Shown: positions 8,125-50,878, numbered from the stretch's first letter. The stretch is DNA of 64,000 nucleotides from an uncultured Gemmatimonadales bacterium (GCA_963741945.1 CAVUKA010000002.1:1-64000), one strand, 5' to 3'. Notes: generated from the letters alone by a model not told the origin. Program-made: numbers and translations.

Positions 8125-9072
8125 TCATAGCACCCCCTCGACCGCTCGCACCACCCACTCCCTCGCCTCTTCCGGCGCCACCACCTCCGCCTCCGGCCCG
8201 TAGCCCAGCACGTGGCGCACGACCCACCTGGGGTCGGCCACGGTGTGCCGGACGAGCACGCCGCCGTCCGCCTGCGCTTCCCCCTCGCCGCGCTCCAGCA
8301 GCCACGGTGCGACGCGGGGGGAGTAGCGCACGGTGACCTCCACCTCCTCGTCGGCGCGGTAGACCCGGCCGCCATCGAGCCAGGCGCCGGGGTCGAAGTC
8401 GGCGGGCGGGTCGAAGGCGGCGTCGCCGAGCGTCGCCTGGAGGATCCGGTCGACGCGGAACGCGCGCACGTCGTCCTTCTCAGGGGCGTTGCCCAGGCAG
8501 TACCACTTGCCGCGGGCGTGGACCACGGCGTACGGCTCGACGTCGCGCTGCTCGGGGGCGAGGGCGTCGGGCTTCAGGTACGCGATGGCGACGCGGCGGC
8601 GGCGGCGGGCGGCGTCGACGAGGAGGGCGCGGATGGCGTCGGCGGCATCGGGGTCGCCGTCGGCGACGATCCGGTCGGGGAGCTCCGTGGGGACGACGCG
8701 GGCGACGCGCTCCAGCAGGCTACGGAGGCGCTCGGGCACCTGTCCGTCCTCGCGCTCGGCGGCGAGGATGCGGAGGCCGAGGTCGAGGGCCGCGGCCTCG
8801 CCGGGGGTCAGGCGCGGCGGGCGCTTCAGGTGGCCGGTGGTCCAGACGCGGACGCGCTCGGCGTCCAGGCCGACCTGGATGTCGTCGCCCTCGCCGGCGG
8901 GGTGGTAGAACTCGCGCTCGGAGACCTGCGCCAGGTCGCGCTCGAGCCGGCGGCGGGAGACGCCGAGGCGGGCGGCCAGGTCGTCGTAGGCGACGCCGTC
9001 GTCATCGCGGGCGGCGAGGGGGAGGACGTGGAGGATCCGCTCGACGCGGTCGAGGGCGGTGTCAGGAGCCAT
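8125..9072 (-). CDS. HTH-WYL-WCX transcriptional regulator, PafC-like
   Basis: N-terminal HTH (DLAARLGVS), RPPRLTPGEAAAL, RDVEPY...GKWYCLG...RAFRVDRI and VLGYGPEAEVVAP. Confidence 0.88.
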   Translation of the reverse strand: MAPDTALDRVERILHVLPLAARDDDGVAYDDLAARLGVSRRRLERDLAQVSEREFYHPAGEGDDIQVGLDAERVRVWTTGHLKRPPRLTPGEAAALDLGLRILAAEREDGQVPERLRSLLERVARVVPTELPDRIVADGDPDAADAIRALLVDAARRRRRVAIAYLKPDALAPEQRDVEPYAVVHARGKWYCLGNAPEKDDVRAFRVDRILQATLGDAAFDPPADFDPGAWLDGGRVYRADEEVEVTVRYSPRVAPWLLERGEGEAQADGGVLVRHTVADPRWVVRHVLGYGPEAEVVAPEEAREWVVRAVEGVL

Positions 9073-10276
9073 GCGCGTCCCCGGGCCGGGCATCGGGGTC
9101 GGGCGACCCGGGGGCAGCCGGCGGCTGCTCGGGCTGGGGGGCGTAGCGCTCCAGCGTGGTGCGGGCGAGGGCGACCTGGGCGGCGCGGAGCTCCGGGGGC
9201 GCGACGACCACGGCGTCGCCGGCGAACGACTGGAGCCAGCGGAGGAACGCGTCCGGCTGGCGGACGGCGAAGCGGCGGACGGCGGTGCCGCCGGGGGCCT
9301 CCTCCACGAGCTCGCCCTTGTGGTTGCGGTCGGCCCAGAGGCTCACCGGGAAGGTGAAGGCGACGTCGGCGCGGCGGGGCTCGGCGTCGCCCAGCTCCCA
9401 CGGCTCCCGCCTGGCGTAGGCGCGGACGTCGAAGCCCGGGTCGATCTGGTACTCGTTCCCGGGGCTCCCTTTCGCCATCGCGGGCGGGTCCATGCGCGCG
9501 ACCTTGAAGATGCGGAGGTCGCCATCGCGGGCGGCGTCGGGGCCGATGAGGTACCAGGACCCGTGCTGGTAGAGGAGCCCGTACGGGGCGACGTCGCGCT
9601 GCGTGGGCTCGCCGCGGGCGATGCCGTGATAGCGGAAGCGGACGCGGGCGCGGCGGCGGAGGGCGTCCATCAGGACTTCGAGGCTGGCGCGGACGCCTTC
9701 GGCGCCGCGGCCTTCGGCGTAGACCACGGGGGGCTCGGCCAGCTTCGCGGGCTCCAGGTCGAACGTCAGCTTCGAGAGCGCGGACCTGGCTTCGCGGGCC
9801 AGGGGGGACGAGGGGAGAGCGGCGATGCGGTGAAGGGCATCGAGGGCGGCGCGGGCGTCGTCCAGGTCCAGGTCCAGCGGACGGGAGAGGCCGGACACGC
9901 CAGACGGAGCACGGGGGGCGGACACGGGGGGGGTCCCGCCCTCGTCCCCGGCGGCCACGAGCCGGAGATACGGCAGGTAGAAGTCCTTCGCGCTGAGCTG
10001 GTAACCGAACGAGGACTCGCCGCCCTCCGCCGGGAACTCGCGCGTCTCGATCGGGATGCCGGCGGCGCGGAGCTCGTCCTTGTCGCGCTCGAACATGCGG
10101 TGGAGGGCGGCCAGGTCCTGCTCGGAGCCGGAGCGCAGCTTCTCGCGGTAGGCGGGGACGCCCTCCATCACCTCGTCGACGGGGACGGGGAAATGGCGCC
10201 TCACCAGGAAGGCGATGAGGTCCAGCCAGCGCTGGGTCTTGGAAATGGCCACGTCGCCGCGTTCCGGGCTGCTCAT
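9062..10276 (-). CDS. HTH-WYL-WCX transcriptional regulator, PafB-like
   Basis: RMFERDKDELRAAGIPIE (PafB-type motif), RDVAPYGL...GSWYLIG...RIFKVARM. Overlaps the pafC-like gene. Confidence 0.9.
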   Translation of the reverse strand: MSSPERGDVAISKTQRWLDLIAFLVRRHFPVPVDEVMEGVPAYREKLRSGSEQDLAALHRMFERDKDELRAAGIPIETREFPAEGGESSFGYQLSAKDFYLPYLRLVAAGDEGGTPPVSAPRAPSGVSGLSRPLDLDLDDARAALDALHRIAALPSSPLAREARSALSKLTFDLEPAKLAEPPVVYAEGRGAEGVRASLEVLMDALRRRARVRFRYHGIARGEPTQRDVAPYGLLYQHGSWYLIGPDAARDGDLRIFKVARMDPPAMAKGSPGNEYQIDPGFDVRAYARREPWELGDAEPRRADVAFTFPVSLWADRNHKGELVEEAPGGTAVRRFAVRQPDAFLRWLQSFAGDAVVVAPPELRAAQVALARTTLERYAPQPEQPPAAPGSPDPDARPGDAHGS

Positions 10277-10415
10277 GGGACACACCTGCGTGCTGCCGTC
10301 GGCGGCCGCCTCGGACAGGGGGTTCCGGGGAGGTGGCGGGCATCGACGGGGTGGAAAATGCTCGGTTGGGACATGGTTCGCAACGGGATGGCGAGGGATG
10401 CGGTCTCCGGGCGGA

Positions 10416-10437
10416 AGGATGGGGGAGGGGTGTGACA
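10416..10437 (-). promoter_or_regulatory. Candidate PafBC-type promoter upstream of the pafB-like gene
   Basis: Minus strand TGTCAC-ACCCCTCCCC-CATCCT. Confidence 0.5.
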
Positions 10438-10517
10438 GTCCTGGGCGGCGGCGAGCGGGCGGCATCGGCGCGGCAGCCGATTCCGGGAGCGGGCGCGGGA
10501 AGGGCGCAAGCCCGGCT

Positions 10518-10555
10518 CACACGAAGGGCACGAAGGGCACGAAGACACGAAGGGG
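10518..10555 (+). repeat. Solo ACGAAG(GG/A)C tandem repeat related to the GxxExxY flanks
   Basis: cacacgaagggcacgaagggcacgaagacacgaagggg. Confidence 0.7.
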
Positions 10556-10800
10556 GGAGGCAGCAGCTGCGGCGGGTCGGGGCGTTTATGGTCGGGCGGC
10601 GCATCAGTCGTAGCGTGGTCGCCACACATTTCCCCGTGTGAACGGTCGGAGGCGGAAATGGCAACCGTTTGCGTTTACATGCGTTAAACAAGCGCCCATT
10701 CTGTCGATATATTCGGTACGGGAAATGCTCGTTACCGTTGTTTCTCACCTGCGGCCACCCGGCCGCATTTCTCGTCCGACAGTCCTGGAAGCGAGGGTGC

Positions 10801-12402
10801 ATGAAGCACCGGATGATGAGCGTCGCGTTGCTGGCGGTGGCCATTACGGCGTGTACGGAACCGGCTGACCCGGTGGCGATGGTGGAGGGCGATCATCTGG
10901 AGAGCCGGGCGTCCTCGGCGACGGATCCGCTGAGCAACGCGAACCGGCTGCCGGAGTCGCTGGAGCAGAAGGTGAAGGCGCTGCGGACGGACATGGAGGG
11001 GCGGGGCTACCGGGTCGCGCGGGGGTACTGGACGTTGTGGGGGGCGGACGACTGCAAGGCGCCGATGCAGACGGTGGGGTTCTGCTACGGGAACAACCCG
11101 ACCGCGCCGTACGTGCTGGCGGTGGTTCCGAACTGGAAGGACGAGCACGTGGACCAGGAGCTCCACCACGCGCTTCTCAAGGCCCAGCGGAACATGTCCG
11201 CCATCTACCGGCTGGACCACCGGGAGGCGCTGGTGGTGATGGCCAAGCTGCCGCCGCCGGCGCGCTACCTCGGCCTCACGACGAACGTGTTCACGCGCGA
11301 GACCACGCTGAACGAGAGCGACCCGATCTACCAGCTGTCTCTGACGGTGCCGCTGATGCAGGCGATGCAGTGGATCCTCTTCGCGACGTCGCCCGTGCCG
11401 TCGCGCATGATGCTGATCTCGAGCATCGGCGACGCCACGAACAACGTGAACATCCAGGACCAGAGCGGGAGCGTGTGGGCCGAGGAGCGCTTCTTCATCA
11501 TCACCCCCGACCGTGGGCTGGCCGCGGAGATCACGGCCGCGCTGGTTTCGGCGGGCGTGCCGTCCGAGGACGTGTTCACGGAGGAGGCCTCGCCCGACGT
11601 GGTGCGTCCGGGGCTGGGCCCGGAAGCGGACGACTTCATCACGTACCTGCGCTACGCGCTTCCGGATGATCCGGCGGCGGGCGAGCAGTGGCGGAAGGAG
11701 CTGCCGCTGACGGTGCTGCGGGTCAGGGACGCGAACCCGTCCAGCGCGCTGGACCCGTTCCCGCTCCCGCCCTACGACGAGCGGACGTTCACGATGGACG
11801 AGAGGGATCCGTCCAACGGTCTCTCCGATGATCTGGGCGCGGTGGTGGCCGCGGTGAAGGCGCGGTGGGGCCAGCCGGATGCATCGGTGAAGCCCTACGC
11901 CAGCCTGACGGACAACTTCGACCTGGTGGGGCAGCACTGCCTGGGCGCGGGGCCGGATCCGCTTCGCGGGCCCATGGACTGCCTGGGGGACAACCAGGAT
12001 GACGAGCCGCTCATCGGTCCGACCATCCACCTCGAAGGCGACACGGTCGTCGCCATGGTCGGAACGCTCGCCACGGAGACGGGCAACGCGACGTACGTGA
12101 GCCTCTCGGTCAACTGGTTCCCGTACCTGGTGGGCGTCCAGAACCTTTCGGACGTTCAGCTCACGGGCACGGCCGCGGAATACCTGGAGGGTGACCGCGC
12201 GCACTTCTTCTACGTGTACTACATCGCGCGGGACTGCACGGGGATCGACAACTGCCTCGAGGTTCCGCGGAAGCTGGTTCCCGCGGGAGAGAGCATCAAG
12301 GCCATCGTGCGGAACTACGTGACCCCGGGCAGCGCGCGCGGCCCCGACCCCACGAAGCTGCTGATGCCGCGGGTGATCTTCCTCGACGGAAGCCAGCGGT
12401 AG
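10801..12402 (+). CDS. Uncharacterised lipoprotein
   Basis: MKHRMMSVALLAVAITAC signal peptide and lipobox, long ORF with high-GC3 codon usage, no recognised family motif. Confidence 0.75.
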   Translation: MKHRMMSVALLAVAITACTEPADPVAMVEGDHLESRASSATDPLSNANRLPESLEQKVKALRTDMEGRGYRVARGYWTLWGADDCKAPMQTVGFCYGNNPTAPYVLAVVPNWKDEHVDQELHHALLKAQRNMSAIYRLDHREALVVMAKLPPPARYLGLTTNVFTRETTLNESDPIYQLSLTVPLMQAMQWILFATSPVPSRMMLISSIGDATNNVNIQDQSGSVWAEERFFIITPDRGLAAEITAALVSAGVPSEDVFTEEASPDVVRPGLGPEADDFITYLRYALPDDPAAGEQWRKELPLTVLRVRDANPSSALDPFPLPPYDERTFTMDERDPSNGLSDDLGAVVAAVKARWGQPDASVKPYASLTDNFDLVGQHCLGAGPDPLRGPMDCLGDNQDDEPLIGPTIHLEGDTVVAMVGTLATETGNATYVSLSVNWFPYLVGVQNLSDVQLTGTAAEYLEGDRAHFFYVYYIARDCTGIDNCLEVPRKLVPAGESIKAIVRNYVTPGSARGPDPTKLLMPRVIFLDGSQR

Positions 12403-12605
12403 CGGCCCGGGCCGGCCCGGGTGCGGCGGCCCTGCCGCATCCGGACCCGGCCGCTTCGCCGTTGACTCCCCGGTCGGCGTCCGACACCGTTGACCATGCG
12501 CGACATGCGGTCGGCGGCCGCCGCCGGGATCGTGATGCGCCGCGTCGCGCCGGTGCGCAGCCCGTCCGCACTGCCGTCCCACCCGACCCGAACCGGAGCC
12601 CGTCC

Positions 12606-14363: not shown

Positions 14364-14527
14364 CGGGAGCCCGCCCGGAACCGTCTGCATGGAATTACCC
14401 ATCCGAGGCTCCCCGCGAAAATGGTCCGTTCTCCCGACGCGCGCCCGCACCCCGGCGCGCCATCGTTGGTCGTGGGCGCCCGGGAGCCGGCGGTCCCGGG
14501 CACGGCGACAGACCTGCGGGGGACGAT

Positions 14528-15868: not shown

Positions 15869-15971
15869 GGGGGTGGGGGAGCGGGCGGCGGGCGCGATCC
15901 TGGCCGCGGCGGTGCCTGGGGGGTCGACGTGCGGCCGATCGGCCCCCGGGGCGAGGGGGGTGAGGCGGTCA

Positions 15972-16000
15972 TTGTCGGAACCGGACCCCTCGGTTACCTT
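15972..16000 (+). promoter_or_regulatory. Sigma70-like promoter of the DEAD-box helicase gene
   Basis: TTGTCG-N17-TACCTT. Confidence 0.6.
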
Positions 16001-16045
16001 ACACGTCGTGTGAGCACCAGTGGGTGCCGCACTCGTACGATCGAG

Positions 16046-16078
16046 AGAGCCTCGGCGGACGCCGGGGTTCTTTTTTTG
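16046..16078 (+). terminator. Intrinsic terminator/attenuator within the helicase 5' leader
   Basis: gagcctcggc-ggac-gccggggttc followed by a T-tract, about 55 nt before the ATG. Confidence 0.7.
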
Positions 16079-16134
16079 TGCGCTCCTTCCGGATGTGCCG
16101 GACCACGGGGCGCCGACCCATCGGAAGGAACTGG

Positions 16135-17615: not shown

Positions 17616-17635
17616 GCGCGCGGCGGCGCCCGGGC

Positions 17636-39378: not shown

Positions 39379-39400
39379 TGTCACACGGATGCGATACCTT
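39379..39400 (+). promoter_or_regulatory. Candidate PafBC-type promoter of the addB-addA operon, probably leaderless
   Basis: TGTCAC-ACGGATGCGA-TACCTT, ending 7 nt before the ATG at 39408. Confidence 0.65.
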
Positions 39401-39407
39401 TGGAACC

Positions 39408-42400
39408 ATGATTTCCGATTCCAAGTTCCCCATCCTGCTCCGATCCCTCGACCGCGCCACGCGCGAGCGCCCGCACGCGCGCAAGCTCCTGCTGTGCTCG
39501 CGCCCCGCGGAAGGGCGTGAGCTGCTGCGATCCCTGGCGCTTTCCGGCGTGCCGTGGCTGGGCTGGGAGCCGCTCTCGCTGCGGCAGCTGGCGCTGACGG
39601 TGGCGGGCGGTGCGCTGGCGGTGGCGGAGCTCCGCGTGGCGGACGCGTTCGACGTGATGGCGGTGGTGGACGCGGCCATTGATGAAGCCGTGGCGGAGGG
39701 CGGGGCGCGCCCGTTCCGCGGCGGGGTGCCGGGTCCGTACCGTGACCCGATCCGGCGGAGCGTGGAAACGCTGCGAGCGGCGGGCCTGGGGGCGAGCGCG
39801 CTGCGGCGGGCGGAGTCGGGCGACGGCCGGCTGGACCTGCTGGCGCGGGTGCTGGAGCGCTACGAGGCCGGGCTGAGCGCGTCGGCGCTGGTGGACGGCC
39901 CCGGGCTGCTGGCGCGTGCGGAGGAGGCGCTGGGGGCCGGCGGCGTGCCGGAAGCGCTGGCGGGTGCGCGGCTCCATCTGCTGCCCGGGCTGGACGCGGG
40001 CGGGGTAGCGGGGCGGCTGGTGGCGCGTCTGATGGAGCTGGGCGCGCGCGTGCTGGAGACCGATGCCACGCCCGGTGCCCCGACGCCGGCGCACACGGTG
40101 TGGGCGGCCCCGGCGGAGCCGGAAGGCGGGCTGTCGTGGCTGAGCACGCGGCTGGACGGGGCACTGCCGCCGTCGCTGGAGGCGGGCGGTCTGCCGGGGG
40201 GCCTGCACCTGTTCGCGGCGGCGACACCGGCGGACGAAGTGCGGGAAGTTCTGCGGCGGGTGGTGGCGGCGGGGGTCCCGTGGGACCGGGTGGAGATCAT
40301 CGCGACGGACGCGGACGTGTACGGGAACGCGCTGGACGGCCTGGCCCGCCGGCTCGGGATCCCCGTGAGCTACGCGGAAGGGCTGGACATCCGGCGGACG
40401 CGGGCGGGCCGCGTGGCGGAGGCGTACTTCCGCTGGCTGGCGGACGGCTTCCCCGCCGACGTGATCCGCCGCCTGCTGGAGACCGGGGACGTGGCGCCGC
40501 CCGGGCCGTCGTCCGCATCGGCATCGGCGCTCGCGCGCCGGCTGCGGCGCCTGCGGATCGGCTGGGGCTACGACCGCTACCTGCCGGCGATCGACCGTGC
40601 GCTGGAAGCGGCGGCAGGGGCGAGTCCGCGGGAGGGTGATGGTGACCCCGAGGCCGCGGCCGATGCGCTGGCGCGGGAGCGGACGGAGCTGAAGGCGCTG
40701 CGGTCGCTGCTCGCCCCCGTGCTGGAGGCGACGCCCCGCCTGGCCGACCGCCACGCCATCGACACCGCCCGCACCTCCCCCGCGCGCCTGGCCGGGGGGC
40801 TGCTCGAGCTGCTGGCGCTGGTGCCGCCGGGCGACGAGGTGGAGCGGGCGGCGAAGCTGGTGCTCGGCGAGCGGCTGGAGCGGGCGCGCGCCACGCTGGA
40901 CCGGGAGACCGGGTGGCGGACGGCCACGGCCATGCTGCGCGCACGGCTGCGCACGCGCATCTCCCCGGCGGGCGACGACGGGCAGCTGTCGCCCTGGACG
41001 TCGGCGGGCGGGCGGCTCCACCTGAGCGACATCGCCTCCGGCGGGCTCGCGGCGCGGCCGCACACGTTCGTGGTGGGGCTGGCCGCGGGGGCGGTGGGCC
41101 CCGGCGCGTCGGACCCGATGCTCCCGGACCGGGAGCGCGCCGCGCTGGGCCTGCCCACCACCGCGGACCGGCTGGCCGCGTCGCGGCACGCGCTGGCATC
41201 GGTGCTGGCGCGGCTGCGAGGTTCGGTGACGCTGTCGTACGCGGCGTGGGACATGGCCGAAGGGCGCGTGGTGGCGCCCGCGCCGGAGCTGCTGCAGGCG
41301 CTGCGGCTGCTGGACGCGGACCCGTCGCGGACGTACGAGGACCTGCGGAAGCGCCTGGGCCGGCTCGCCTGCGCGGTCCCGGCCGAGGGCGCCGGCGCGC
41401 TGGACGCGGCGGACGTCTGGCTGGACGCGCTCTCGGCGCCGGATGGTCTGCTGCGGGATGGCGCGGCCGCGGTGCGCACGCTGTACCCGGGGCTGGCCGC
41501 GGGACTGGGCGCGGGGGAGGCGAGGCGCGCGTCGTCGCTGACGGCGTGGGACGGGCGGGTGGCGCCGGACCCGGCACTGGATCCGCGGCGCAGCGGCGTC
41601 GTGCACTCGGCTTCGCGGCTGGAAGCGCTGGGCGCGTGCCCGCTCCGCTACTTCTACCGCTACGTGCTGGACGCTCGGCCGGTGCGCGATCCGGGGTACG
41701 ACCCGGAGAGCTGGCTGGACGCGCTGGAGCGGGGTTCACTGCTGCACGCGGTGTACGAGCACGCGGTGGTGCGGGCGGGCGTGGGCGCGGACTACGGCGG
41801 GGCGTCGTTCGAAGCGCTGGCGATGGACGCGCTGGAGGACGCGGTGCATCGCACGCTGCGTCGCCTGCCTTCGCCGAGCGAGGCGGTGCTGCGGTCGGAG
41901 CTGCTGGCGCTGCAGGACGACGTGCGGTCCTTCGTGGTCATGCTCCGGGATCGGCGTCCGCGCGTGGTGCGGACGGAGCTGGCGTTCGGCCCCGAAACGG
42001 ACGCGGAGTCGGAGGGTGAAGTCGAGCTGTCGGTGCCCGGCGGTCGGCTGCGCCTGCGCGGGCGGGTGGACCGGCTCGACGCGCTGGACGGGGGCGGGCT
42101 GCGCGTGGTGGACTACAAGACGGGACGGCCATCGCGCTACCGGGAGGCGCTTCCGTTCGACGGCGGGCGGCGGCTCCAGCACCTGCTCTACTCGCTGGCG
42201 GTGGAGCAGCTCCGACCGGGCGAGCGCGTGGGCGTCATGGAGTACCACTTCCCCACGGCGCGTGGCGAGAACCACGTGACGCGCTACCACCGCGAGCAGC
42301 TGGAACCGGGAGGCGAAGTGCTGCGGATGCTGCTCCAGCTGGCCGCGGACGGGCTGTTCATCCCGACGGACGACGACGGCGACTGCCGCTACTGCGACTT

Positions 42401-42539
42401 CGGCGCAGTCTGCCGCGTGACCACGAACGACTGGGGCTCGGCCGACTCGCCGCGTGCGCGATGGGCGAAGGAGTCGGGGATGCTGCTACCCGAGTACGCG
42501 CCGCTGGTGCAGCTGCGGGGCGGGGAGGTGGAGGCATGA
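39408..42539 (+). CDS. AddB-like inactive-helicase/PD-(D/E)XK nuclease subunit
   Basis: SASRLEALGACPLRYFY, RGSLLH, RGRVDRLD...VVDYKTG and CRYCDFGAVC (four Cys for an Fe-S cluster). Confidence 0.88.
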   Translation: MISDSKFPILLRSLDRATRERPHARKLLLCSRPAEGRELLRSLALSGVPWLGWEPLSLRQLALTVAGGALAVAELRVADAFDVMAVVDAAIDEAVAEGGARPFRGGVPGPYRDPIRRSVETLRAAGLGASALRRAESGDGRLDLLARVLERYEAGLSASALVDGPGLLARAEEALGAGGVPEALAGARLHLLPGLDAGGVAGRLVARLMELGARVLETDATPGAPTPAHTVWAAPAEPEGGLSWLSTRLDGALPPSLEAGGLPGGLHLFAAATPADEVREVLRRVVAAGVPWDRVEIIATDADVYGNALDGLARRLGIPVSYAEGLDIRRTRAGRVAEAYFRWLADGFPADVIRRLLETGDVAPPGPSSASASALARRLRRLRIGWGYDRYLPAIDRALEAAAGASPREGDGDPEAAADALARERTELKALRSLLAPVLEATPRLADRHAIDTARTSPARLAGGLLELLALVPPGDEVERAAKLVLGERLERARATLDRETGWRTATAMLRARLRTRISPAGDDGQLSPWTSAGGRLHLSDIASGGLAARPHTFVVGLAAGAVGPGASDPMLPDRERAALGLPTTADRLAASRHALASVLARLRGSVTLSYAAWDMAEGRVVAPAPELLQALRLLDADPSRTYEDLRKRLGRLACAVPAEGAGALDAADVWLDALSAPDGLLRDGAAAVRTLYPGLAAGLGAGEARRASSLTAWDGRVAPDPALDPRRSGVVHSASRLEALGACPLRYFYRYVLDARPVRDPGYDPESWLDALERGSLLHAVYEHAVVRAGVGADYGGASFEALAMDALEDAVHRTLRRLPSPSEAVLRSELLALQDDVRSFVVMLRDRRPRVVRTELAFGPETDAESEGEVELSVPGGRLRLRGRVDRLDALDGGGLRVVDYKTGRPSRYREALPFDGGRRLQHLLYSLAVEQLRPGERVGVMEYHFPTARGENHVTRYHREQLEPGGEVLRMLLQLAADGLFIPTDDDGDCRYCDFGAVCRVTTNDWGSADSPRARWAKESGMLLPEYAPLVQLRGGEVEA

Positions 42540-45500
42540 GTGGGGACGACCTGCAGCTTCGGATGCCGCTGATCGCGGGCGCGGACGATGCCGCGCCGAA
42601 GCCGCCGGACGACCAGCCGGCCCGGGACCGGATCCTCGCCGAGCTGGATGCCAACCTGCTCGTGGAAGCGGGGGCGGGGTCGGGGAAGACCACGTCCATG
42701 GTGGGGCGCATGGTGGCGCTGGTCGGCGCCGGCCGGGACGTGGAGCGCATGGCCGCGGTGACGTTCACCCGCAAGGCCGCGGCGGAGCTGCGGGAGCGGT
42801 TCCAGGAGAAGCTGGAGTGCGCGTTCCGGGACGCCCGGGCGGCGGGTGATGCCGAGGGCGCGGCGCGGTTCGGCGCCGCGCTGGACGCCCTCGACCGCTG
42901 CTTCCTGGGCACCATCCACGCGTTCTGCGCGCGACTGCTGCGGGAGCGGCCGCTGGAGGCCCGCGTGCCGCCCGAGTTCGAGGAGATCTCGGGACCGGAC
43001 GAGGATCGGCTGCGGGCGGAGAGCTGGACCCGCTTCCTGGAGCGGCTGGCCGCGCGCGACGGCTCGCGGCTGGTGCGCGCCATGGCCGACTACGGCCTGA
43101 CACCGGCCCGGCTCCACGGTGCGTTCCGGGAGCTGAGCGAGAACCCGGACGTCCACTACCCCGCCCCGGCGGCGCCGCGGCCGGGCGCCGCCGAGATCGC
43201 GGCAGTGCGTCGCGGGCTGGAGCGGCTGCACGACCGCTCGCTCGCGCTGCTTCCGGCGGCGGAGCACCCGGACGGCCGGGACGATCTGCAGAGGAAGATC
43301 CACACGCTCAAAGTGCGGCGCTTCGTCCTGGGCTGGGACTCCGACGTGGCGTTCATGGACGCATTGGAGCTCGCGGTACAGGGGTCGAACAGGATCGTCC
43401 AGAAGCGCTGGGCCGACGAGCGGGACGGGAAGGCCGCGGCCAGGGACCTCTCGGAGGGGTGGGAGGAGTTCTGCGACGAGGGCTCCGGCGCGAGCCGGCT
43501 GCTGCGCGCGTGGTGGGCGGCCCGCTACCCGGTGGTGATCCGCTTCGCCCGCGCGGCCGCGGGTGCGTACCAGCGGGACCGGCTGAGCGTGGGGCAGCTC
43601 ACGTTCCAGGACCTGCTGGTGCGCACCGCCGCACTGCTCCGCGAGCGCCCGTCGGCCAGGCGGGAGCTGGGCGAGCGATACCGGTGGCTGCTGGTGGACG
43701 AGTTCCAGGACACGGACCCGCTCCAGGCGGAGATCCTCTTCCTGCTGGCGTCGGAGCCGGCCGCGGCGGGCGACTGGCGCACGCTCGCGCCGCGGCCTGG
43801 CGCGCTCTTCGTGGTGGGCGACCCGAAGCAGAGCATCTACCGGTTCCGCCGGGCGGACATCAGCGTCTACAACCAGGTGAAGCGCGCGTTCGAGGGCTTC
43901 GGCGAAGTACTGGCGCTGACCACGAACTTCCGCTCCCGCCCACCCATCGGGGCGTTCGTGAACCCGGCGTTCCGGAACGTTTTCGCCCCGACTGCGACGG
44001 AGCACCAGGCTGCGTTCGCGGAGCTCAGGGTGCACCTCGGCGACACGCCCGCCCAGCGCGTGGCCTGCTACCGGTTCGAGCCCCGACCGGGCCGGGGGAA
44101 GCACAGCGGAAAACGGATCTCCGAGCCGGAGTCGGCGCTGCTGGCGTCCTGGATCCGGTCGCGCATCGAGACGGGCGAGCGCCGGCCGGCCGACTTCATG
44201 GTGCTGGCCATGCGGAAGGGTGAGCTGGCCGCCTACGCCCGGGCGCTGGAAGCGCACGGCGTCCCCGTGCAGGTAACGGGCGCCGGTGTCGGCGCCGACC
44301 ACGAGCTGAGCGAGCTCATCCTCCTGCTGCGCGCGCTGGCCGATCCGGGCGACCCGGTGCTCACGCTGGCGGTGCTGGAAGGGCTGTTCTTCGGTCTCTC
44401 CCACCAGCAGCTGCTGGACCACGCGCGGGCCGGCGGCCGGCTGTCGTTCGCCGGCGAGACGGGAAGCGGCCCCGTGGCGGACGCGCTCCGCACCCTGGGC
44501 CGCTTCTGGAACACCGCGCAGCGCCTCCCCGCCGACATCGCCATCGCCACACTGGTGGACGAGCTGGGCATCCTTCCCTGGGCCGCGGCCGGGGAGCTGG
44601 GCGCCACGCGGGCGGGCGCGGTGCTCTACGCGCTGGACGCCCTGCGGGTCGCCGCCGGGGATGGTGCGGCGTCGCTGGCCGAGGCCATCGAAGTACTGGA
44701 AGCGGCGCTGGCCGAGGAAGTGGACGCGCCGCTGGTCCCGGGCGAGACGGATGCCGTGCGGGTCATGAACCTGCACAAGGCCAAGGGACTGGAAGCGCCG
44801 GTGGTGGTGCTGGCCTATCCGGCGAAGCTGGAGCCACACCCGCCCACGCGGCACATCGCCCGGGATGCCGGGGGCCGGGCCGTGGGCTGGCTGCGCGTCC
44901 TGGATGCGACGCAGGCGGGGGCCCGCACCCTGGCCGCGCCGGCCGACTGGCAAGCGCACGAAGAAGCGGAAGCGCCGTATGCGGCGGCCGAGGCCGGGCG
45001 GCTCCTCTATGTCGCCGCCACCCGGGCGAAAGAGGAGCTGGTGGTGGGCCGCTGCACGAAGACCGAGGACGACGGCTGCTGGAGCGCGCTCCACGAGACG
45101 CTGGACGCACCCGGCGTGGCCACCGAGATCTCCCCCACCCTGCTGGACCCCGCGCCGCGCCAGCCGCTGGCGGAGTCACCGGCCACCCTCGAGCGTCGCA
45201 TGGCCGACGTGGCGGCAGCGCGGAGCGGCCTGGGCTCCCCCTCCTACCGGGCGAGGTCCATCACGGCCCGGGTGCACGGCGAGGGCGGCGGCGCAATCAC
45301 CCGGGATCTGCCGGAAGGCGGGCACGGGGACGCGGGCGGTCGGCCACGCCCCGACACCCGGCTGGTCCCGGTGACCGGCGACGCGCTCCGGGCGGCCGGC
45401 GCCATCCGGAGCGGCGGGGCGGCCGTGCGCACCCGTCCCGCGGACTGGGGGAGCGCGGTGCACCGTGCGCTGGAAGCGGCCGGCCGCGGGGCCGCGGGCG

Positions 45501-45901
45501 CGCGGCTGCGGCAGCTGTGTCGCCTGACGCTGGCGGAGTTCGACCGGCCGATGGACGCGGGCAGCGGTGAGCCGGTGGAGCTGGACGAGATCGTGGCGCT
45601 GGTCGAAGCGGTCCGCGCGTCGGCCGTGTGGGACGAAGTGCGGCGCGCCCGGCACGTGCTGGTGGAAGCGCACCTGGCGTTCGCCATGGATGCGGCGGAA
45701 GCGGCGCGGCTGGGCGTGGACTCCCCGGCGGAGCGGGAGCTGTTCGAGGGCACCATCGACCTGGCGTTCCAGGACGAGCGTGGCCGCTGGAACATCGTGG
45801 ACTTCAAGACCGACGCGGACATCCCCCCGGACCGCCGGCGGCTGTACGAGCGGCAGCTCGCGCTCTACGCCGAGGGGCTGGCGCGCGCCGACGGGGCCTG
45901 A
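42536..45901 (+). CDS. AddA-like UvrD helicase-nuclease subunit
   Basis: EAGAGSGKT, VTFTRKAA, LVDEFQDT, VGDPKQSIYRFR, HKAKGLE, LYVAATRAK and GTIDL...IVDFKT. Confidence 0.9.
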   Translation: MSGDDLQLRMPLIAGADDAAPKPPDDQPARDRILAELDANLLVEAGAGSGKTTSMVGRMVALVGAGRDVERMAAVTFTRKAAAELRERFQEKLECAFRDARAAGDAEGAARFGAALDALDRCFLGTIHAFCARLLRERPLEARVPPEFEEISGPDEDRLRAESWTRFLERLAARDGSRLVRAMADYGLTPARLHGAFRELSENPDVHYPAPAAPRPGAAEIAAVRRGLERLHDRSLALLPAAEHPDGRDDLQRKIHTLKVRRFVLGWDSDVAFMDALELAVQGSNRIVQKRWADERDGKAAARDLSEGWEEFCDEGSGASRLLRAWWAARYPVVIRFARAAAGAYQRDRLSVGQLTFQDLLVRTAALLRERPSARRELGERYRWLLVDEFQDTDPLQAEILFLLASEPAAAGDWRTLAPRPGALFVVGDPKQSIYRFRRADISVYNQVKRAFEGFGEVLALTTNFRSRPPIGAFVNPAFRNVFAPTATEHQAAFAELRVHLGDTPAQRVACYRFEPRPGRGKHSGKRISEPESALLASWIRSRIETGERRPADFMVLAMRKGELAAYARALEAHGVPVQVTGAGVGADHELSELILLLRALADPGDPVLTLAVLEGLFFGLSHQQLLDHARAGGRLSFAGETGSGPVADALRTLGRFWNTAQRLPADIAIATLVDELGILPWAAAGELGATRAGAVLYALDALRVAAGDGAASLAEAIEVLEAALAEEVDAPLVPGETDAVRVMNLHKAKGLEAPVVVLAYPAKLEPHPPTRHIARDAGGRAVGWLRVLDATQAGARTLAAPADWQAHEEAEAPYAAAEAGRLLYVAATRAKEELVVGRCTKTEDDGCWSALHETLDAPGVATEISPTLLDPAPRQPLAESPATLERRMADVAAARSGLGSPSYRARSITARVHGEGGGAITRDLPEGGHGDAGGRPRPDTRLVPVTGDALRAAGAIRSGGAAVRTRPADWGSAVHRALEAAGRGAAGARLRQLCRLTLAEFDRPMDAGSGEPVELDEIVALVEAVRASAVWDEVRRARHVLVEAHLAFAMDAAEAARLGVDSPAERELFEGTIDLAFQDERGRWNIVDFKTDADIPPDRRRLYERQLALYAEGLARADGA

Positions 45902-45908
45902 TCGCCAG

Positions 45909-46000
45909 CGGCCGCGTCCGCTCGCCAGAGGGTCGGGCTACCGTCGGCCGTGCCCGCTCGCCAGAGGGGTGGGCTACGGTCGGCCGTGTCCGCTCGCCAG
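45909..46000. repeat. 36-bp tandem repeat (~2.6 copies) at the addA/yhaN convergence
   Basis: cggccg(c/t)g(t/c)ccgctcgccagaggg..gggctac.gt repeated. Confidence 0.85.
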
Positions 46001-49000
46001 GATGGCGGGTCCGCGGGCGAAGCGGTCGAGGAGGGCGTCGATGTCGGCGGGGTCCAGTGATGGCGCGACGCGGGCGGCGTCGGCGGAGAGGGCCAGGCGG
46101 AGCTCGGCGGCCGAGAGCGGCTCGGCTTCGGCCATGTAGCCGTTCTCCCGCAGCCAGTCCCGCAGCTCTTCGGTCTTGGCTGCGTGGAAGCGCTCGACCT
46201 GCCGGTCCTCGAGGGCGGCGATGAGCGCGCGGGCGTCCCCGTCCACGCGCTCGCACAGGTCGCAGACCCGGTCGAACATGGTGTCCGAAACGGCGGGCGC
46301 GTCGGCCAGCGCGGCGCGGTCCACGGCCTGACCGCGGCCGCTTCGCCAGAGCTGGAGGAAGCGCTCGCACAGTGCGGCGGCGCTCGCCGCCCGCTCCAGT
46401 GCGGCCCGGAGCGCCGCGTCGGGCGCGGCGGTCACGCGGCCAACCCGCTCGAGCTGCCCCCATCGCGTGATCCCGCGCTTCAGCAGCCCGTGCAGCGCGT
46501 CGGGTTCATCCAGCAGGTACCACAGGTGCACGCCGCCGAGCCCGTCGGACCACGGATCGAGGCGGGGCACGGCGAGCGCGCGGCCGTACGCGTCGTAGTC
46601 GAGGCCATCGGGCGACGGCACGGCCTCTACCGGGTCGGCGGACCACTCGATCTCCGCCGCGATCGGGCCACGGAGCTGCCCGCGCTCCGGTCCCGCGCCA
46701 TCTCCTCCGCCGTCCAGCGACCGGACCCCCCAGTCCACGTCGGGCGCGGCGTCGAGCGCGCGCCGCCACCTGGCGAGCTCGTCCGCCTGGGCAGTGAAGT
46801 AGAAGATCTGGCGGCCGCGGCGGGCGAGGCCGATGGCGGCCTCGATGATGGCGTCGGCGCGCTGCTCGTCGGAGTTGGCGAGGACCTCGTCCAGGAGCAG
46901 CGGTAGTGCGGCGCCCGCCTCCTGCGTCTCCACGAACGCCACGCGCACGGCCAGGAGCAGCTGGAGCCGCGTCCCCGAGGACAGCTCGTCCAGGGCGTGG
47001 CCGCGGCCGGTGACCGTGTCCCGCGCCCGGAAAGAGCCGTCGTGGCCCAGGTCCAGCACGTACCGGTGCCGCGTGATGGTCTCCAGCAGGTCCCTCGCCC
47101 GCTCGAACACAGCCGGCCGGCCGTGGTCCGCCGCGCGCGCGCCGAGCCACTCCACCAGGGCGACGCCGACCTCGGCCTCCACGTCCGCGGCGCGCTGGTC
47201 CCGGAGCGCCGCCATCGCCGCGTCCACTCCGGCGAGCGCCTCTTCCACGTCGTGTTTCCGGCGCGCTTCGGCAAGGCGCGTCTCGATCTGCGTGATGCTC
47301 CGGGCCAGCGATGTGGCGCCCGCCATGGCCTCCTCCGCCCCTGCGAGCGCCTGCTCGAGTCCCGGGATCCCGCCGGGAGAGGCCGCTTCCACGGCCGCCC
47401 GAGCGGTGGACCCTTCGGGCGCAATGTCGTCCAGCGACCGCTCGAGCAGCGATCGACGCGTCCCGGCCTCGTCGGCCGCGCGTCTCGCCTCCCGGTAGTC
47501 CTCGACGAGCTCCGCCCTGGACCGGAGCTCGTGCTCCCGCTCCGGCGGCAGCCCGGCGGCGTCGAACACCCCGGCGCGCTCGGAGAGCCCGCTGGCCCGG
47601 TCCTGCTCGGCGCGCTCGCGGTCGCGGAGCGCGGCTTCCCGGGCGGCGACTGCGGCCGCGTGGCGCTCGCGCCGGCCCCGCAGGTCGCGGGCAAGGGCGG
47701 CCAGCGCGGCCACCGACTCCCTGGCCCGCCCGACGTCGTCCTCCGCGCAGTGGTCGGCGGCCAGGTCGGCGCCGGCCGCGAGGGCGGCGGAAAGCGCGGC
47801 CGCGTGCCCGGCGAGATCGGCTGCCCGGGCGACTTCGGCGCGCCGGGCCGCGCTCCACTCCCGCAGCCGGGTGGCGGTGACGTGGAGCGCCAGGTCATCC
47901 GTCGCGGGCGCCAGCCCGAGCGCGGTGGCAACCCGCTCCCGTTCGGACCGGAGCGCCGCCGCGTCCTCTTCGAGCTGCGGACGCATCGCTTCAAGACGGG
48001 CCGCCTCCTGCGCTCGCAGCTCGCCACTCTTCACTTCCGCCCGGACGGCGGCCAGCCGCCGGTCCAACCCGCGCAGCGCGCTCTCCACGGCGTCCGCCGT
48101 CCACGCCGTCGGCGCTTCGCCAGCCTGTGTCGCCCGACGCTCCAGCGGCGTGCGGTCGGCCGACGACGGGCGGGGCCGCAGGACCAGGACGAGCGCCGCG
48201 GCCACCAGCGCGGCGGCGCCCAGGAGCGGCACGCCCACGAGAAGTGCCGCGCCGCCCGCCAGCGCCAGCGCGCCGGCGGCGACCAGCACGAGCATCCGCA
48301 AGCGCGTTTCGGCAGTCCCGCCACCCTCACCCGTGCGCAGCCACTCACGCAGGGCGCTGGCGGCGTCCTCCAGGTCGGTGAGCCGATCCGCCTCGGGGCT
48401 CTCCGAAGGAGCGCCCAGGACGCGCAGCCGCTCCTCCAGCGCGCTCCGCCGCTCCTCGAGCCGCTGCGCGCGCTCGATCAGGCGCTGGAGCGCGTCGGCC
48501 TCGGCCGCGGCGGGATCGGGGAGCGGATCGGCCTCCCGTTCGATCCCCAGCCGGGCGCCCGCCAGCTCCCGCTCCGCGGCGGCTTCAGCCAGCGCTTCAC
48601 GATCACGGACGATCTCCCGCTCGGCGTCGCGGGCCTGCTGCACGTGCTCGTCCAGCTCGTCCAGTCGCTGGGCCGGGAGGCCGGCCTCCCCGAGCCCGAC
48701 GCGCTCCAGCTCCTCCACGGCGGCGGCCGCCTTCTCCCGGGCGGCGGCGAGTTCCCGCTCGGCCTGCTCGATGGCGGCATCGCAGGCGTCCAGGCGTGAA
48801 GGCTCCTGGCCGTCCAGGCGATCCATGCCGTCCGGGAATGCCGCCAACCGCAGTTCGGCGGAGGCCAGCGCCTCGGCGGCGCGGGCCACTTCCAGCGCGC
48901 GGCGAAGCGCCTCGGCTGCGCCACCGCGCTCCCGGGCCACCCCGTGCGCGGACCGCAGCCGCGCCAGCTCCGTCACGGCCGCGCGCAGCTCCGACTCCTT

Positions 49001-49519
49001 CGCCTGCGCCTCCCGCAGCCGCGCCTCCGCGGAGCGCAGGTTCTGCTGGAGCGAGCGCGGCGCCCCGGCCGACTCGATCTTCAGCGCCGCGGCCGCACCA
49101 GCCACGTCGTACCCGCCCGCGGACTCCACGCGGATGCGGTCGGCCAGGTCGCGGTCCTCCTGGTCCGCGGACAGGAGCCCGTGAAGCGACAGGAAGTAGC
49201 GGTCGCGGGTGTCCGCCGGCGGGAGCGCCGGCGCACCGGCCTCCACGGTGTCCCGCTGCCAGCGGACACGCGGCGCGTCCAGCTCCACCAGCCACGCCGC
49301 GCCCTCCAGCTCGAAAGCGGCATCCACGCCGGCCGAGTCCGGCGCGGCCGTGCTCCAGAGCGCCGCCTGGAGCGCCCGTGCCGCCGTGGTCTTCCCCGAT
49401 GCGTTGGCCCCGTGCACCAGCGTCACGCCCCCGGGCAGGTCCTCGAGCCGCAGCCCGCCCCGGGGGAAGCCGGGCATGCGACGCACCACCAGCCAGCGGA
49501 ACCGGAGCGCGTCGCTCAT
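45974..49519 (-). CDS. YhaN/SbcC-like coiled-coil ABC ATPase
   Basis: Walker A HGANASGKTT, long coiled coil with a central hydrophobic hairpin, signature LSSGT and Walker B LLLDEVLANSD. Confidence 0.85.
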   Translation of the reverse strand: MSDALRFRWLVVRRMPGFPRGGLRLEDLPGGVTLVHGANASGKTTAARALQAALWSTAAPDSAGVDAAFELEGAAWLVELDAPRVRWQRDTVEAGAPALPPADTRDRYFLSLHGLLSADQEDRDLADRIRVESAGGYDVAGAAAALKIESAGAPRSLQQNLRSAEARLREAQAKESELRAAVTELARLRSAHGVARERGGAAEALRRALEVARAAEALASAELRLAAFPDGMDRLDGQEPSRLDACDAAIEQAERELAAAREKAAAAVEELERVGLGEAGLPAQRLDELDEHVQQARDAEREIVRDREALAEAAAERELAGARLGIEREADPLPDPAAAEADALQRLIERAQRLEERRSALEERLRVLGAPSESPEADRLTDLEDAASALREWLRTGEGGGTAETRLRMLVLVAAGALALAGGAALLVGVPLLGAAALVAAALVLVLRPRPSSADRTPLERRATQAGEAPTAWTADAVESALRGLDRRLAAVRAEVKSGELRAQEAARLEAMRPQLEEDAAALRSERERVATALGLAPATDDLALHVTATRLREWSAARRAEVARAADLAGHAAALSAALAAGADLAADHCAEDDVGRARESVAALAALARDLRGRRERHAAAVAAREAALRDRERAEQDRASGLSERAGVFDAAGLPPEREHELRSRAELVEDYREARRAADEAGTRRSLLERSLDDIAPEGSTARAAVEAASPGGIPGLEQALAGAEEAMAGATSLARSITQIETRLAEARRKHDVEEALAGVDAAMAALRDQRAADVEAEVGVALVEWLGARAADHGRPAVFERARDLLETITRHRYVLDLGHDGSFRARDTVTGRGHALDELSSGTRLQLLLAVRVAFVETQEAGAALPLLLDEVLANSDEQRADAIIEAAIGLARRGRQIFYFTAQADELARWRRALDAAPDVDWGVRSLDGGGDGAGPERGQLRGPIAAEIEWSADPVEAVPSPDGLDYDAYGRALAVPRLDPWSDGLGGVHLWYLLDEPDALHGLLKRGITRWGQLERVGRVTAAPDAALRAALERAASAAALCERFLQLWRSGRGQAVDRAALADAPAVSDTMFDRVCDLCERVDGDARALIAALEDRQVERFHAAKTEELRDWLRENGYMAEAEPLSAAELRLALSADAARVAPSLDPADIDALLDRFARGPAILASGHGRP

Positions 49520-50811
49520 GCGACCTCCTTGCGCCGCACCAGCTCGTCCAGCAGCCGCGACGCCTGGCGACGCAACGCGTCCCGGGCTCCGTCCCGGCCC
49601 GCGCCTTCCGCTCCCCGGACCGCCGCGAAATGGGAGCGCGCCAGCACGCGGTCGGCGGCGGACCGGGCCCGGGCGGTGACTTCCTCGAGGAGCGGATCCG
49701 GCTCTCCCGCGTCGAGGGCCAGGAGGAGGCGGGCGAGGAGCGCCGGCGCGTCGCTGCCGCGGGAGAGGTCGTCGAGGTCGAGGGCGGGGGCGGTGTCGTC
49801 GTCGAGACGGGCGTCCACCACCAGGCGGACGCCCTCCCGCTCCGGCAGCTCGAGCTCCTCGAGGCGGCCGAGCGCGGACGCCACGCGGGCGTACAGCGCC
49901 GTCCGGCCCGTCAGCCGGACGCGGCAGGAGAGCAGCCCGAGCGGACCGCACCCTTCCTCCACCACCGCGGCCAGCCGGGAGCGGAGCGCGTCCACGACGC
50001 GGGCGCGCAGCATGGCCTCGTCGCCCGCATCGGTCACGTCCACGTCCACCACCTCGTAGCGCACGGGTGAGAGCGCGAGCGGGCGGAAGCGCGGCGGCAC
50101 GCCGGGGCCGATCTCCAGCATCCACGCGCCGTGACGCCCGCGCTCGCCGGGGTCCAGCGCCAGCAGGGAGCCCGGGTAGAGGAGCGGGACGCGGCCGGCG
50201 TCGCGCAGCCCGGGGACGTGGACGTGCCCCAGCACCCACGCCGCCGGCCCGGCGGACTCCAGCGCCGCCACGGACACCGGGGCGTAGCGAGCTTCCCGGC
50301 CATCCAGGTCGCAGTGCAGCAGCCCGACCACGGGCGCGCCGTCGGCCGGCGGCTCGAACGCGTAGCCGGCCAGCGGATCGTCGCCCCAGCGGGCCTCCGG
50401 GAACGACCACCCGTCCACGTGCAGCAGCGGGCGGCCCTCGGGGTCCGCGAGCGTGTGGCGACGCCATTGCCCGCCCCGCCCGAGCACCACCAGGTGCTCC
50501 TGGCCGACCTCCTCCGCCACGTCGTGGAGCGTGGCATGGTCGTGGTTTCCCGCGACCGCCACCAGCGCGATCCCCGCCTCCTTCAGGCGCCGGACGCCCG
50601 CCTCGAGCGGGCCGTACGCCTCGAAATAGCGGTTGTCCTGGTCCACGACATCGCCGGCGAGCAGCACCGCGTCGACGCCGTCCGCCACCGCTCGATCCAC
50701 CAGCTCGAGCCACGCGGCCGCGGCGGAGACCGGCGATGCGGATGCGGGCAGACGGCTCGGCCTCCGCCCCAGGTGGAGGTCGGCCGCGCACAGCAGCTTG
50801 ACGTCGGACAT
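49516..50811 (-). CDS. YhaO/SbcD/Mre11-like metallophosphoesterase nuclease
   Basis: ADLHLG, AGDVVD, AGNHD, LGHVH and YPGS motifs; ATGA overlap with the ATPase gene. Confidence 0.92.
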   Translation of the reverse strand: MSDVKLLCAADLHLGRRPSRLPASASPVSAAAAWLELVDRAVADGVDAVLLAGDVVDQDNRYFEAYGPLEAGVRRLKEAGIALVAVAGNHDHATLHDVAEEVGQEHLVVLGRGGQWRRHTLADPEGRPLLHVDGWSFPEARWGDDPLAGYAFEPPADGAPVVGLLHCDLDGREARYAPVSVAALESAGPAAWVLGHVHVPGLRDAGRVPLLYPGSLLALDPGERGRHGAWMLEIGPGVPPRFRPLALSPVRYEVVDVDVTDAGDEAMLRARVVDALRSRLAAVVEEGCGPLGLLSCRVRLTGRTALYARVASALGRLEELELPEREGVRLVVDARLDDDTAPALDLDDLSRGSDAPALLARLLLALDAGEPDPLLEEVTARARSAADRVLARSHFAAVRGAEGAGRDGARDALRRQASRLLDELVRRKEVA

Positions 50812-50856
50812 GCGGGTGATGCTCGGTGATGCGGTGGCGAGGATACGGCCGCGTGT

Positions 50857-50878
50857 AGGGTAACACGGGGGTGGGACA
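50857..50878 (-). promoter_or_regulatory. Candidate PafBC-type promoter of the yhaO-yhaN operon
   Basis: Minus strand TGTCCC-ACCCCCGTGT-TACCCT, 45 nt before the ATG. Confidence 0.62.

Follow-up and report, generated by a model that had tools for sequence, protein, structure and literature searches.

A candidate PafBC-type regulator with a small set of promoters lacking a -35 element in a Gemmatimonadales genome

Mycobacterial PafBC acts at promoters with the consensus tGTCgg(N10)tA(N3)T, where the helix-turn-helix (HTH) of PafB is placed at -23 to -28 and that of PafC lies against region 4 of the sigma factor (PMC8635444), and it binds single-stranded DNA (ssDNA) in its WYL/WCX tunnel (PMC11804915). 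In M. tuberculosis, PafBC up-regulates AdnAB (PMC8151990). PafBC is reported from almost every actinobacterial species (PMC8635444); WYL proteins are described as ubiquitous, and PafBC is treated as actinobacterial (PMC6789036). Our study concerns a pafB/pafC-like gene pair, and the promoter motif that precedes it and two sets of putative DNA end-processing genes, in a 64,000-nucleotide stretch (the window; CAVUKA010000002.1:1-64000, contig C2:1-64000 in our numbering) of the genome of an uncultured Gemmatimonadales bacterium (GCA_963741945.1, hereafter G000). The computational evidence, consisting throughout of sequence comparisons and predicted structures, makes it likely that a PafB/PafC-type heterodimeric activator operates in the Gemmatimonadota, at -35-less promoters of pafBC, addBA, yhaO/yhaN and a VWA-domain gene located outside the window. 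The observation from which we started is real, and its first reading as a PafBC-like DNA-damage regulon is largely supported, with amendments: the predicted regulon has few members and is unlike that of mycobacteria.

The pair consists of two overlapping genes:

8125..9093, minus strand: pafC-like gene, 322 amino acids (aa), with HTH_PafC, WYL and WCX domains in Pfam
9062..10276, minus strand: pafB-like gene, 404 aa, with WYL and WCX domains in Pfam; it shares 32 nucleotides (nt) with the pafC-like gene

Both the domains and the reciprocal similarity to solved PafB and PafC confirm that the pair at 8125-10276 was correctly recognized, and the two proteins are, by sequence, PafB/PafC-type orthologues. 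The Pfam E-values were 1.8e-16 (HTH_PafC), 7.1e-19 (WYL) and 1.5e-15 (WCX) for the PafC-like protein, and 5.3e-18 (WYL) and 4.5e-8 (WCX) for the PafB-like protein, whose N-terminal HTH is missed by Pfam and aligns to residues 3-95 of PafB (7p5x_AY). A profile of the PafB-like protein, made from 10 orthologues, matched the fused PafBC 6sj9 (4.7e-33) and M. smegmatis PafB (7p5x_AY, 1.9e-30), and PafC at 5.2e-11. The best solved relatives of the PafC-like protein were the PafC half of the fused 6sj9 (6.4e-17) and M. smegmatis PafC (7p5x_AX, 4.9e-16), with a far weaker match to PafB (9.7e-6); each protein is thus closest to its own counterpart, as reciprocal best hits. No named NCBIfam family matched the PafB-like or PafC-like protein, nor the yhaN-like protein described below. 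The two genes are the only WYL-domain genes found in G000, and the pair is kept in 10 of 11 loci examined, with overlaps of 4-89 nt, the eleventh (L005) having a doubtful downstream open reading frame (ORF). Among species-representative genomes, the nearest named relatives of the PafB-like protein are Gemmatimonadota/Longimicrobiales metagenome-assembled genomes (44-52% identity); Gemmatimonadales relatives are at 35-41% and Actinomycetota at just 26-34%, in agreement with the initial impression that the genome is non-actinobacterial, and within the Gemmatimonadota it is Longimicrobiales-like. A record under the name Gemmatimonas aurantiaca (L053) contains a PafB relative with 38% identity. 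It had also been remarked that no Pup-proteasome genes lie beside the pair, and Pup ligase (Pup_ligase) was indeed not found anywhere in G000, which is 96.7% complete. The Pup-proteasome association missing here is a naming feature of the family, outside its activation mechanism.

The residues through which PafBC recognizes DNA are largely conserved in this pair. R46 and R50 of PafB, which read the GTC triplet (PMC8635444), correspond to R60 and R64 in the sequence RMFERDK and are invariant in 10/10 orthologues. The published ssDNA-binding residues of the WYL domains are R181, Y196, R204, R208, R211 and R214 in PafB, and R201 and R204 in PafC (PMC11804915). Five of those in PafB (R181, Y196, R204, R208 and R214) align with R227, Y242, R250, R255 and R261 here, all invariant, while R211 aligns with K258, at a position where the family consensus has R; the two PafC arginines align with R213 and R216, invariant in 10/10 orthologues. 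A predicted PafB-PafC complex reached an interaction prediction score from aligned errors (ipSAE) of 0.75 (best control, 0.00), a mark attained for 116/157 complexes of solved structure and for 2/215 mismatched pairs, with at least 81% contact agreement between runs and a partner predicted local distance difference test (pLDDT) score of at least 79. This model supports a B/C heterodimer, in the sense of a likeness to solved complexes and not of binding by this particular copy, because similar complexes have already been solved.

A single motif had been described at three sites in the window, and we found all three exactly where they had been placed, each facing its named gene. The genome contains a fourth, which lies before a gene outside the window:

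10416..10437, minus strand: candidate PafBC-type promoter before pafBC, TGTCACAC-N8-CATCCT; the pafB ATG (10276) is 139 nt on
39379..39400, plus strand: candidate PafBC-type promoter before addB, TGTCACAC-N8-TACCTT; the ATG (39408) is 7 nt on
50857..50878, minus strand: candidate PafBC-type promoter before the yhaO-like operon, TGTCCCAC-N8-TACCCT; the ATG (50811) is 45 nt on
C3:296640-297953 (L148:1501-2814), outside the window: VWA-domain gene, preceded by the genome's best PafBC-type site

The short distance of 7 nt between TACCTT and the addB-like ATG was likewise as originally described. The strict pattern matched three times in the window versus 0.00 expected from 100 shuffles, a test that is circular because the pattern was derived from the same three sites. 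In the whole of G000 (8 contigs, 4.09 Mb, 70% G+C), it has only four matches on both strands (8.2 million positions), all intergenic and each facing a gene 7-139 nt away. The fourth, at C3:298025 (-), is 44 nt before the VWA-domain gene and has further flanking bases in common with the pafB site. With a weight matrix made from 40 sites, the four scored 30.0 (VWA), 23.7 (pafB), 22.1 (yhaO) and 21.9 bits (addB); the next-best position in the genome is intragenic (19.3 bits), and the fifth-best of 3471 upstream regions, before a RecQ-like helicase, scored 15.3 bits. These regions come from our own gene calls, made with a codon-usage caller (3477 genes, 89% coding, some genes missed). A matrix from which the genus had been left out (33 sites, all from other genera) still ranked the VWA, pafB and yhaO sites 1-3 of 8.2 million positions, with the pafB site second at 21.8 bits and the yhaO site third at 19.5 bits. 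It is therefore hardly credible that the likeness of the three sites, in a genome rich in G+C, is due to chance. The pattern was certainly defined post hoc from these sites, but its four matches in 8.2 million positions all precede genes, a matrix from other genera recovers three of the four at the top of the list, and its excess on the sense strand upstream of orthologous genes (40/65 windows versus 4/65 on the opposite strand) already contradicts chance.

This excess comes from a comparison with orthologues from 40 further genomes of this family (41 with G000), searched on the sense strand with the loose pattern TGTC-N12-nAnnnT and controlled by the opposite strand of the same windows. Within 250 nt upstream, the motif was found in 17/17 orthologues of the VWA-domain gene, 9/16 of pafB, 10/25 of addB and 4/7 of the yhaO-like gene, and in 70/3471 upstream regions of G000 as background; the sense-strand excess has a Fisher p of 9e-12, which overstates the case because related genomes are not independent. 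When more genomes and 450 nt were considered, pafB orthologues had the motif in 17/26 cases (2/26 on the opposite strand), and the association first proposed for pafB, addB and the yhaO-like gene (17/26, 10/25 and 4/7) thus extends to their orthologues in relatives. Beyond the family, TGTC-N12-YAnnnT was present within 300 nt upstream in 14/33 pafB loci of named Gemmatimonadota records, including Gemmatimonadales and Gemmatimonadaceae. Orthologues of the RecQ-like helicase, which served as a negative control, had the motif in 3/28 cases. Three unpublished genomes (G016, G017 and G032) contribute to these tallies; all three are included in the count of PafB-positive genomes given below, and G032 in the VWA count. 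One G017 sequence is present in each of alignments A1 (the ten PafB-like family orthologues) and A3. Without these genomes, the counts become 16/16 for the VWA-domain gene (from 17/17), 8/22 for addB (from 10/25), 15/23 and 8/14 for pafB at 450 and 250 nt (from 17/26 and 9/16), 3/28 for recA (from 4/30) and 3/25 for the RecQ-like gene (from 3/28), and no conclusion hinges on them.

The aligned sites give the consensus (A/G)C-TGTC(A/G)(C/G)A(C/G)-CCCC-N4-(T/C)A(C/T)CTT. Among the positions not set by the search, 5 (A/G), 7 (A), 17 (T) and 21 (T) are informative (1.2-1.5 bits each), and positions 9-12 are C-rich. No -35-like signal was seen in the 40 sites, the 16 nt upstream of the box carrying almost no information. 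The distance between the box and the -10 is the same as in the published tGTCgg(N10)tA(N3)T, as had been claimed. The accompanying idea of a variant box holds in part: the boxes of the window do differ from TGTCGG, but the variant is not a private one, and TGTCGG, the form known from mycobacteria, is seen in relatives of several genera. In the VWA promoters, the box is 25-58 nt before the ATG in 15/17 cases, mostly with GGAGG ahead of the ATG. The addB ATG is 7-10 nt past the -10 in G000, G001, G042 and G052, which suggests messages that are leaderless or nearly so; in G033 the distance is 6 nt, from an ATG that is perhaps not the real start.

The best site in the genome thus belongs to a gene that the original prediction, confined to the window, did not include. 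The proposal that the pair controls both end-processing operons and itself stands insofar as the motif is conserved at those places, and has to be amended in that the strongest site is before the VWA-domain gene. This gene encodes a 438-aa protein in which Pfam finds the VWA domain alone, with an intact and invariant metal ion-dependent adhesion site (DRSGS...T...D), and no signal peptide was seen in its sequence. In an AlphaFold2 model (pLDDT 81.5), the VWA fold lies between two beta-sandwiches, and a helical tail follows. Its best Foldseek matches were a Catenulispora VWA protein (4fx5, 3.1e-19), archaeal ArnB/ArnAB (8s05, 4.3e-19) and Sec23/24, with low template modelling (TM) scores (0.35-0.38), so that only domain types are common to the model and its matches. 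An 89-aa ORF without a Pfam match overlaps the VWA stop codon.

The distribution of the VWA-domain gene follows that of PafB. PafB was found in 30/41 family genomes; the 18 that have the VWA-domain gene are all PafB-positive, and none of the 11 PafB-negative genomes has it (Fisher p 0.0008, for genomes that are kin and not independent). The seven family genomes with a yhaO-like gene are also all PafB-positive. The VWA-domain gene is about 2 kb or less from pafB in G052, G044, G032 and G041, and 4-18 kb away in G009, G010, G013, G015, G040 and G048. In a sample of the phylum, 39/151 genomes had a PafB match at E <= 1e-30 and 14/151 a VWA orthologue, which is within about 2 kb of pafB in G096, within about 3 kb in G126 and G168 and about 4 kb away in G104. 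The motif was present in the 300 nt before 10/13 of these orthologues outside G000 (versus 1 on the opposite strand), including all 7 whose match starts at residue 1. These data also bear on the possibility that a different protein, for instance an alternative sigma factor or some unrelated regulator, recognizes the motif, and that the WYL pair is linked to the motif indirectly. The binding of the pair to the box is deduced from sequence, one genome (G042) has the addB motif and no detectable PafB, and the co-occurrence of PafB with the addB motif is not significant. Against this, 17/26 genomes have the motif before pafB itself, the VWA target is restricted to PafB-positive genomes and often adjoins pafB, the arginines that read GTC, the conserved core of the box, are invariant in the PafB proteins concerned, and TAnnnT is a -10 of the housekeeping type, not of the extracytoplasmic function (ECF) type. 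We therefore consider another factor quite unlikely.

Several observations weigh against a PafBC-type activator acting at all four promoters. The motif is not universal (addB 10/25, pafB 17/26, yhaO 4/7), the sites were already known when the search pattern was chosen, and the genomes compared are related and not independent. The motif was present before addB in 9/18 PafB-positive versus 1/7 PafB-negative genomes, a difference that is not significant (p 0.18), and G042, which is 87% complete, has the motif before addB and no PafB match. With the leave-genus-out matrix the addB site ranks just 12th, because its spacer is not C-rich. The pafB site of G000 has an atypical -10 (CATCCT), is 139 nt from the ATG and is upstream of a putative second, sigma-70-like promoter. 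Lastly, D62 in the HTH of PafC, a published contact to sigma region 4, aligns to a Gln here and to Q, R, S or T in the orthologues (acidic in 0/10), in a loop where the alignment is weak and the chain numbering uncertain. The last two points would suit a WYL pair that binds the TGTC box as a repressor, or as a class I/II-like activator, without sigma adaptation: the residue aligned to D62 is not acidic, pafB has a separate putative sigma-70-like promoter, and CapW and other WYL regulators are repressors (PMC11662680). We regard this as unlikely, however, since the spacing between the box and a -10-like hexamer is constant, at 12 nt, in 40 sites with no conserved -35, the layout of a -35-replacing activator as in the solved PafBC complex, and the DNA-reading arginines are conserved.

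The second promoter belongs to a leader that is itself conserved:

10355..10383, minus strand: putative second promoter, of sigma-70-like type (TTGCGA-N17-CATTTT), downstream of the TGTC box and within the leader of pafB

The two hexamers, with equal spacing, are present in L002 and L005, and the pafB leader (10277-10383, minus strand) shares about 90% identity with that of G001 and is seen in G005 too. This element may be a basal promoter or part of a regulatory 5' untranslated region. In G001, which is of the same genus, an ORF of about 63 aa (MDDPELAQ...; L002:1160-1349, plus strand) lies between the TGTC box and the pafB leader; it is missing from G000, where the box adjoins the leader directly.

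A PafBC-type activator of this kind would work as follows, by analogy with mycobacterial PafBC. The ssDNA arising after damage would bind in the WYL/WCX tunnel; with its HTH, PafB would read GTC in a box whose centre is near -26, and PafC would stand in for the contact that the housekeeping sigma factor otherwise makes at -35. This would allow RNA polymerase to initiate at promoters with a normal -10 (TAnnnT) and no -35. The site before pafBC would provide positive autoregulation, and the AddAB-type and SbcCD-like nucleases would resect broken ends. As both machines make more ssDNA, the circuit would be self-reinforcing. The analogical parts of this scheme are the sign of the effect (activation and not repression), ssDNA as the signal, the contact with sigma, the positions of the transcription starts and any role of the VWA protein. 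The orthology of the pair, the conservation of its DNA-reading and ssDNA-binding residues, the geometry, rarity and cross-genus conservation of the motif, the lack of a conserved -35 and the co-occurrence of the VWA-domain gene with PafB are its computational basis.

The nuclease genes behind the two remaining window promoters are the following:

39408..42539, plus strand: addB-like gene, 1043 aa; the nuclease domain at the C-terminus is of the PD-(D/E)XK type (PDDEXK_1, 4.1e-36)
42536..45901, plus strand: addA-like gene, with a UvrD-helicase (2.4e-49) and a C-terminal nuclease (PDDEXK_1, 5.8e-10)
49516..50811, minus strand: yhaO/SbcD-like metallophosphoesterase gene, 431 aa (Metallophos, 5.7e-10)
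45974..49519, minus strand: putative yhaN/SbcC-like ATPase gene, 1181 aa; 4-nt overlap with the yhaO-like stop

The addB-like protein has weak matches to addB_alphas and addB_Gpos, under their cut-offs. The addA-like protein, the start of which is uncertain (the frame is open from 42461), matches addA_alphas (8.6e-62) and recB (1.4e-58), both under the equivalog cut-offs, and the match of the yhaO-like protein to the sbcd subfamily (4.3e-13) is also under its cut-off. The yhaN-like protein has a weak N-terminal match to AAA_23 (Rad50/SbcC-type P-loop; 2.3e-5, under cut-off), and its assignment as yhaN/SbcC-like is made from its size, its position and this P-loop region. Among the family genomes, the yhaO-like nuclease and addB appear to be complementary: five of the seven genomes with the former (G006, G035, G038, G047 and G049) have no addB match, and only G000 and G001 have both. 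G008 has a second, single PafB-like WYL gene (C24:27755-28471; L022, L028; a 330-aa frame) directly before addB (28616, L114), with a near-motif, TGTCGGAG-N8-TATACC, between the two.

Just downstream of pafC are two genes of a different kind, a type IV methyl-directed restriction enzyme with a PLD-like N-terminus and a helicase (3176-6190, minus strand, frame open to 6892; PADLOC mREase_IV, 2.4e-175) and a PD-(D/E)XK gene (6948-7349, plus strand; PDDEXK_3). Since WYL regulators are often found beside defence systems (PMC11662680), the pair could be imagined as a CapW/BrxR-like regulator of the adjacent restriction enzyme, to which the three sites would be unrelated. This seems to us very unlikely: the match to CapW is weak (7.6e-5, versus about 1e-30 for PafB), there is a B/C pair here and not a single homodimer gene, no TGTC box faces the restriction gene, and the motif and the pair are kept where the neighbours are the VWA-domain gene or other genes. 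A PafB/PafC-type activator of the four promoters is the reading that we retain.

Apart from these four promoters, no upstream region of G000 exceeded 15.3 bits, in a scan where uvr, ruv, dnaE2 and radA were not located individually. The published form TGTC-N12-TAnnnT has 29 matches in G000, of which 7 are within 200 nt upstream of a same-strand gene. The RecQ-like helicase (C1:1098280-1099803) was rejected as a regulon member, the motif being present in just 3/28 of its orthologues and in none from the same-genus genome. Upstream regions scoring 11-13 bits (before genes for an ArsR-type HTH protein, riboflavin synthase, a sigma factor, peptidases, a response regulator and an ABC transporter) were background-like, and the TGTC-N12-TAnnnT matches at 58437 and 59316 of the window are inside genes. 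The sequence TGTCCCCAC, in which CAC is one base out of register, occurs at window position 58437 (+) and at C4:62320 (+) (L214), the latter with the ATG of a PP2C phosphatase gene 6 nt further on. An identical 22-nt TGTC-N12-TAAACT match is found at C1:851658 (+) and C3:873520 (+), and these twin loci are probably part of a repeated element, e.g. an rRNA operon.

The enrichment that had been anticipated at recA was not found. The recA gene (C3:313095-314144) and the two clear LexA homologues of G000 (C1:371346-371969, plus strand, and C7:31429-32103, minus strand; L138, L139) have no site, the best upstream scores of recA, lexA1 and lexA2 being -1.5, 0.6 and 1.1 bits, and recA orthologues had the motif in 4/30 cases versus 3/30 on the opposite strand, which is background. 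With no TGTC box at recA or either lexA, a separate SOS system probably coexists with the PafBC-type regulon in G000. Well-formed boxes, TGTCACAG-N8-TAGCTT and TGTCCGAT-N8-TATCTT, were seen 77-83 nt before the match start of recA in the G048 (L255) and G016 (L276, unpublished) relatives, and recA may belong to the regulon of some genera, though not in G000. The regulon predicted for G000 is thus small, unlike the mycobacterial one, with the VWA-domain gene at its core, and recA and lexA outside it.

PafBC and its sigma adaptation have so far been treated as actinobacterial in PMC8635444 and PMC6789036, and our data point to a regulator of the PafBC kind in another phylum; no paper among those listed in our search, which did not cover most subscription journals, connects Gemmatimonadota with PafBC or WYL regulators. 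B and C orthologues with the same promoter geometry and without the Pup-proteasome link suggest a mechanism that is independent of polymerase factors specific to the actinobacteria, and they would allow the essential parts of the system to be sought in a second, independent lineage. A compact core regulon is indicated, composed of the regulator itself, end-resection nucleases and the VWA protein. The VWA-domain gene is the clearest new lead, as it is the most conserved target, occurs in PafB-positive genomes only and has no assigned role in DNA repair. We would tentatively go one step further and propose that PafBC-type sigma adaptation is not an actinobacterial invention, but an older or horizontally shared module present in about a quarter of the sampled Gemmatimonadota, the core of which is not recA but a cytoplasmic protein of VWA, beta-sandwich and helical parts (ArnB/Sec23-24-like fold) that travels with pafBC, as an undescribed damage-response effector or sensor partner; this is a possibility that we find attractive rather than probable.

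Compared with PafBC of M. smegmatis and M. tuberculosis (7P5X, 9FND) and the fused protein of Arthrobacter aurescens (6SJ9), the system described here has the same two adjacent paralogous wHTH-WYL-WCX genes, related B to B and C to C. It also resembles mycobacterial PafBC in its GTC-reading and ssDNA-binding arginines, in its TGTC-to--10 spacing with no conserved -35, and in having an end-resection helicase-nuclease of the AddAB class as a predicted target (AdnAB in M. tuberculosis, PMC8151990). It differs in its host phylum, Gemmatimonadota instead of Actinomycetota; in its box, TGTC(A/G)(C/G)AC followed by a C-rich spacer; and in its setting, with no Pup ligase found in G000 and pafBC having its own promoter or promoters. 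Only about four promoters stand out here, compared with the roughly 150 genes given for mycobacteria (PMC8635444), and recA and lexA are not predicted targets, whereas recA and most damage-induced repair genes are targets there. The top conserved target here is the VWA-domain gene; the main text of the regulon paper PMC8151990 does not contain the term 'von Willebrand' (its supplementary tables were outside the search). The resemblance to DriD of Caulobacter crescentus (8TP8, 9PFV) is one of class, that of ssDNA-activated wHTH-WYL-WCX regulators with a small, SOS-independent regulon and a coexisting LexA; the activation by ssDNA is predicted here. DriD is encoded by a single homodimer gene, unlike the B/C pair, and DriD-type chains (8tp8, 9pfq) match the PafC-like protein at about 1.5e-7 and are unlisted for the PafB-like profile. 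The box described here is asymmetric and located at -26. The DriD target site is an inverted repeat and lies further upstream. Finally, CapW and BrxR are alike in domain architecture and in having a defence gene nearby, but the similarity is much weaker (CapW 7.6e-5), and they are single homodimeric repressors, whereas the boxes found here precede repair genes in the geometry of an activator.

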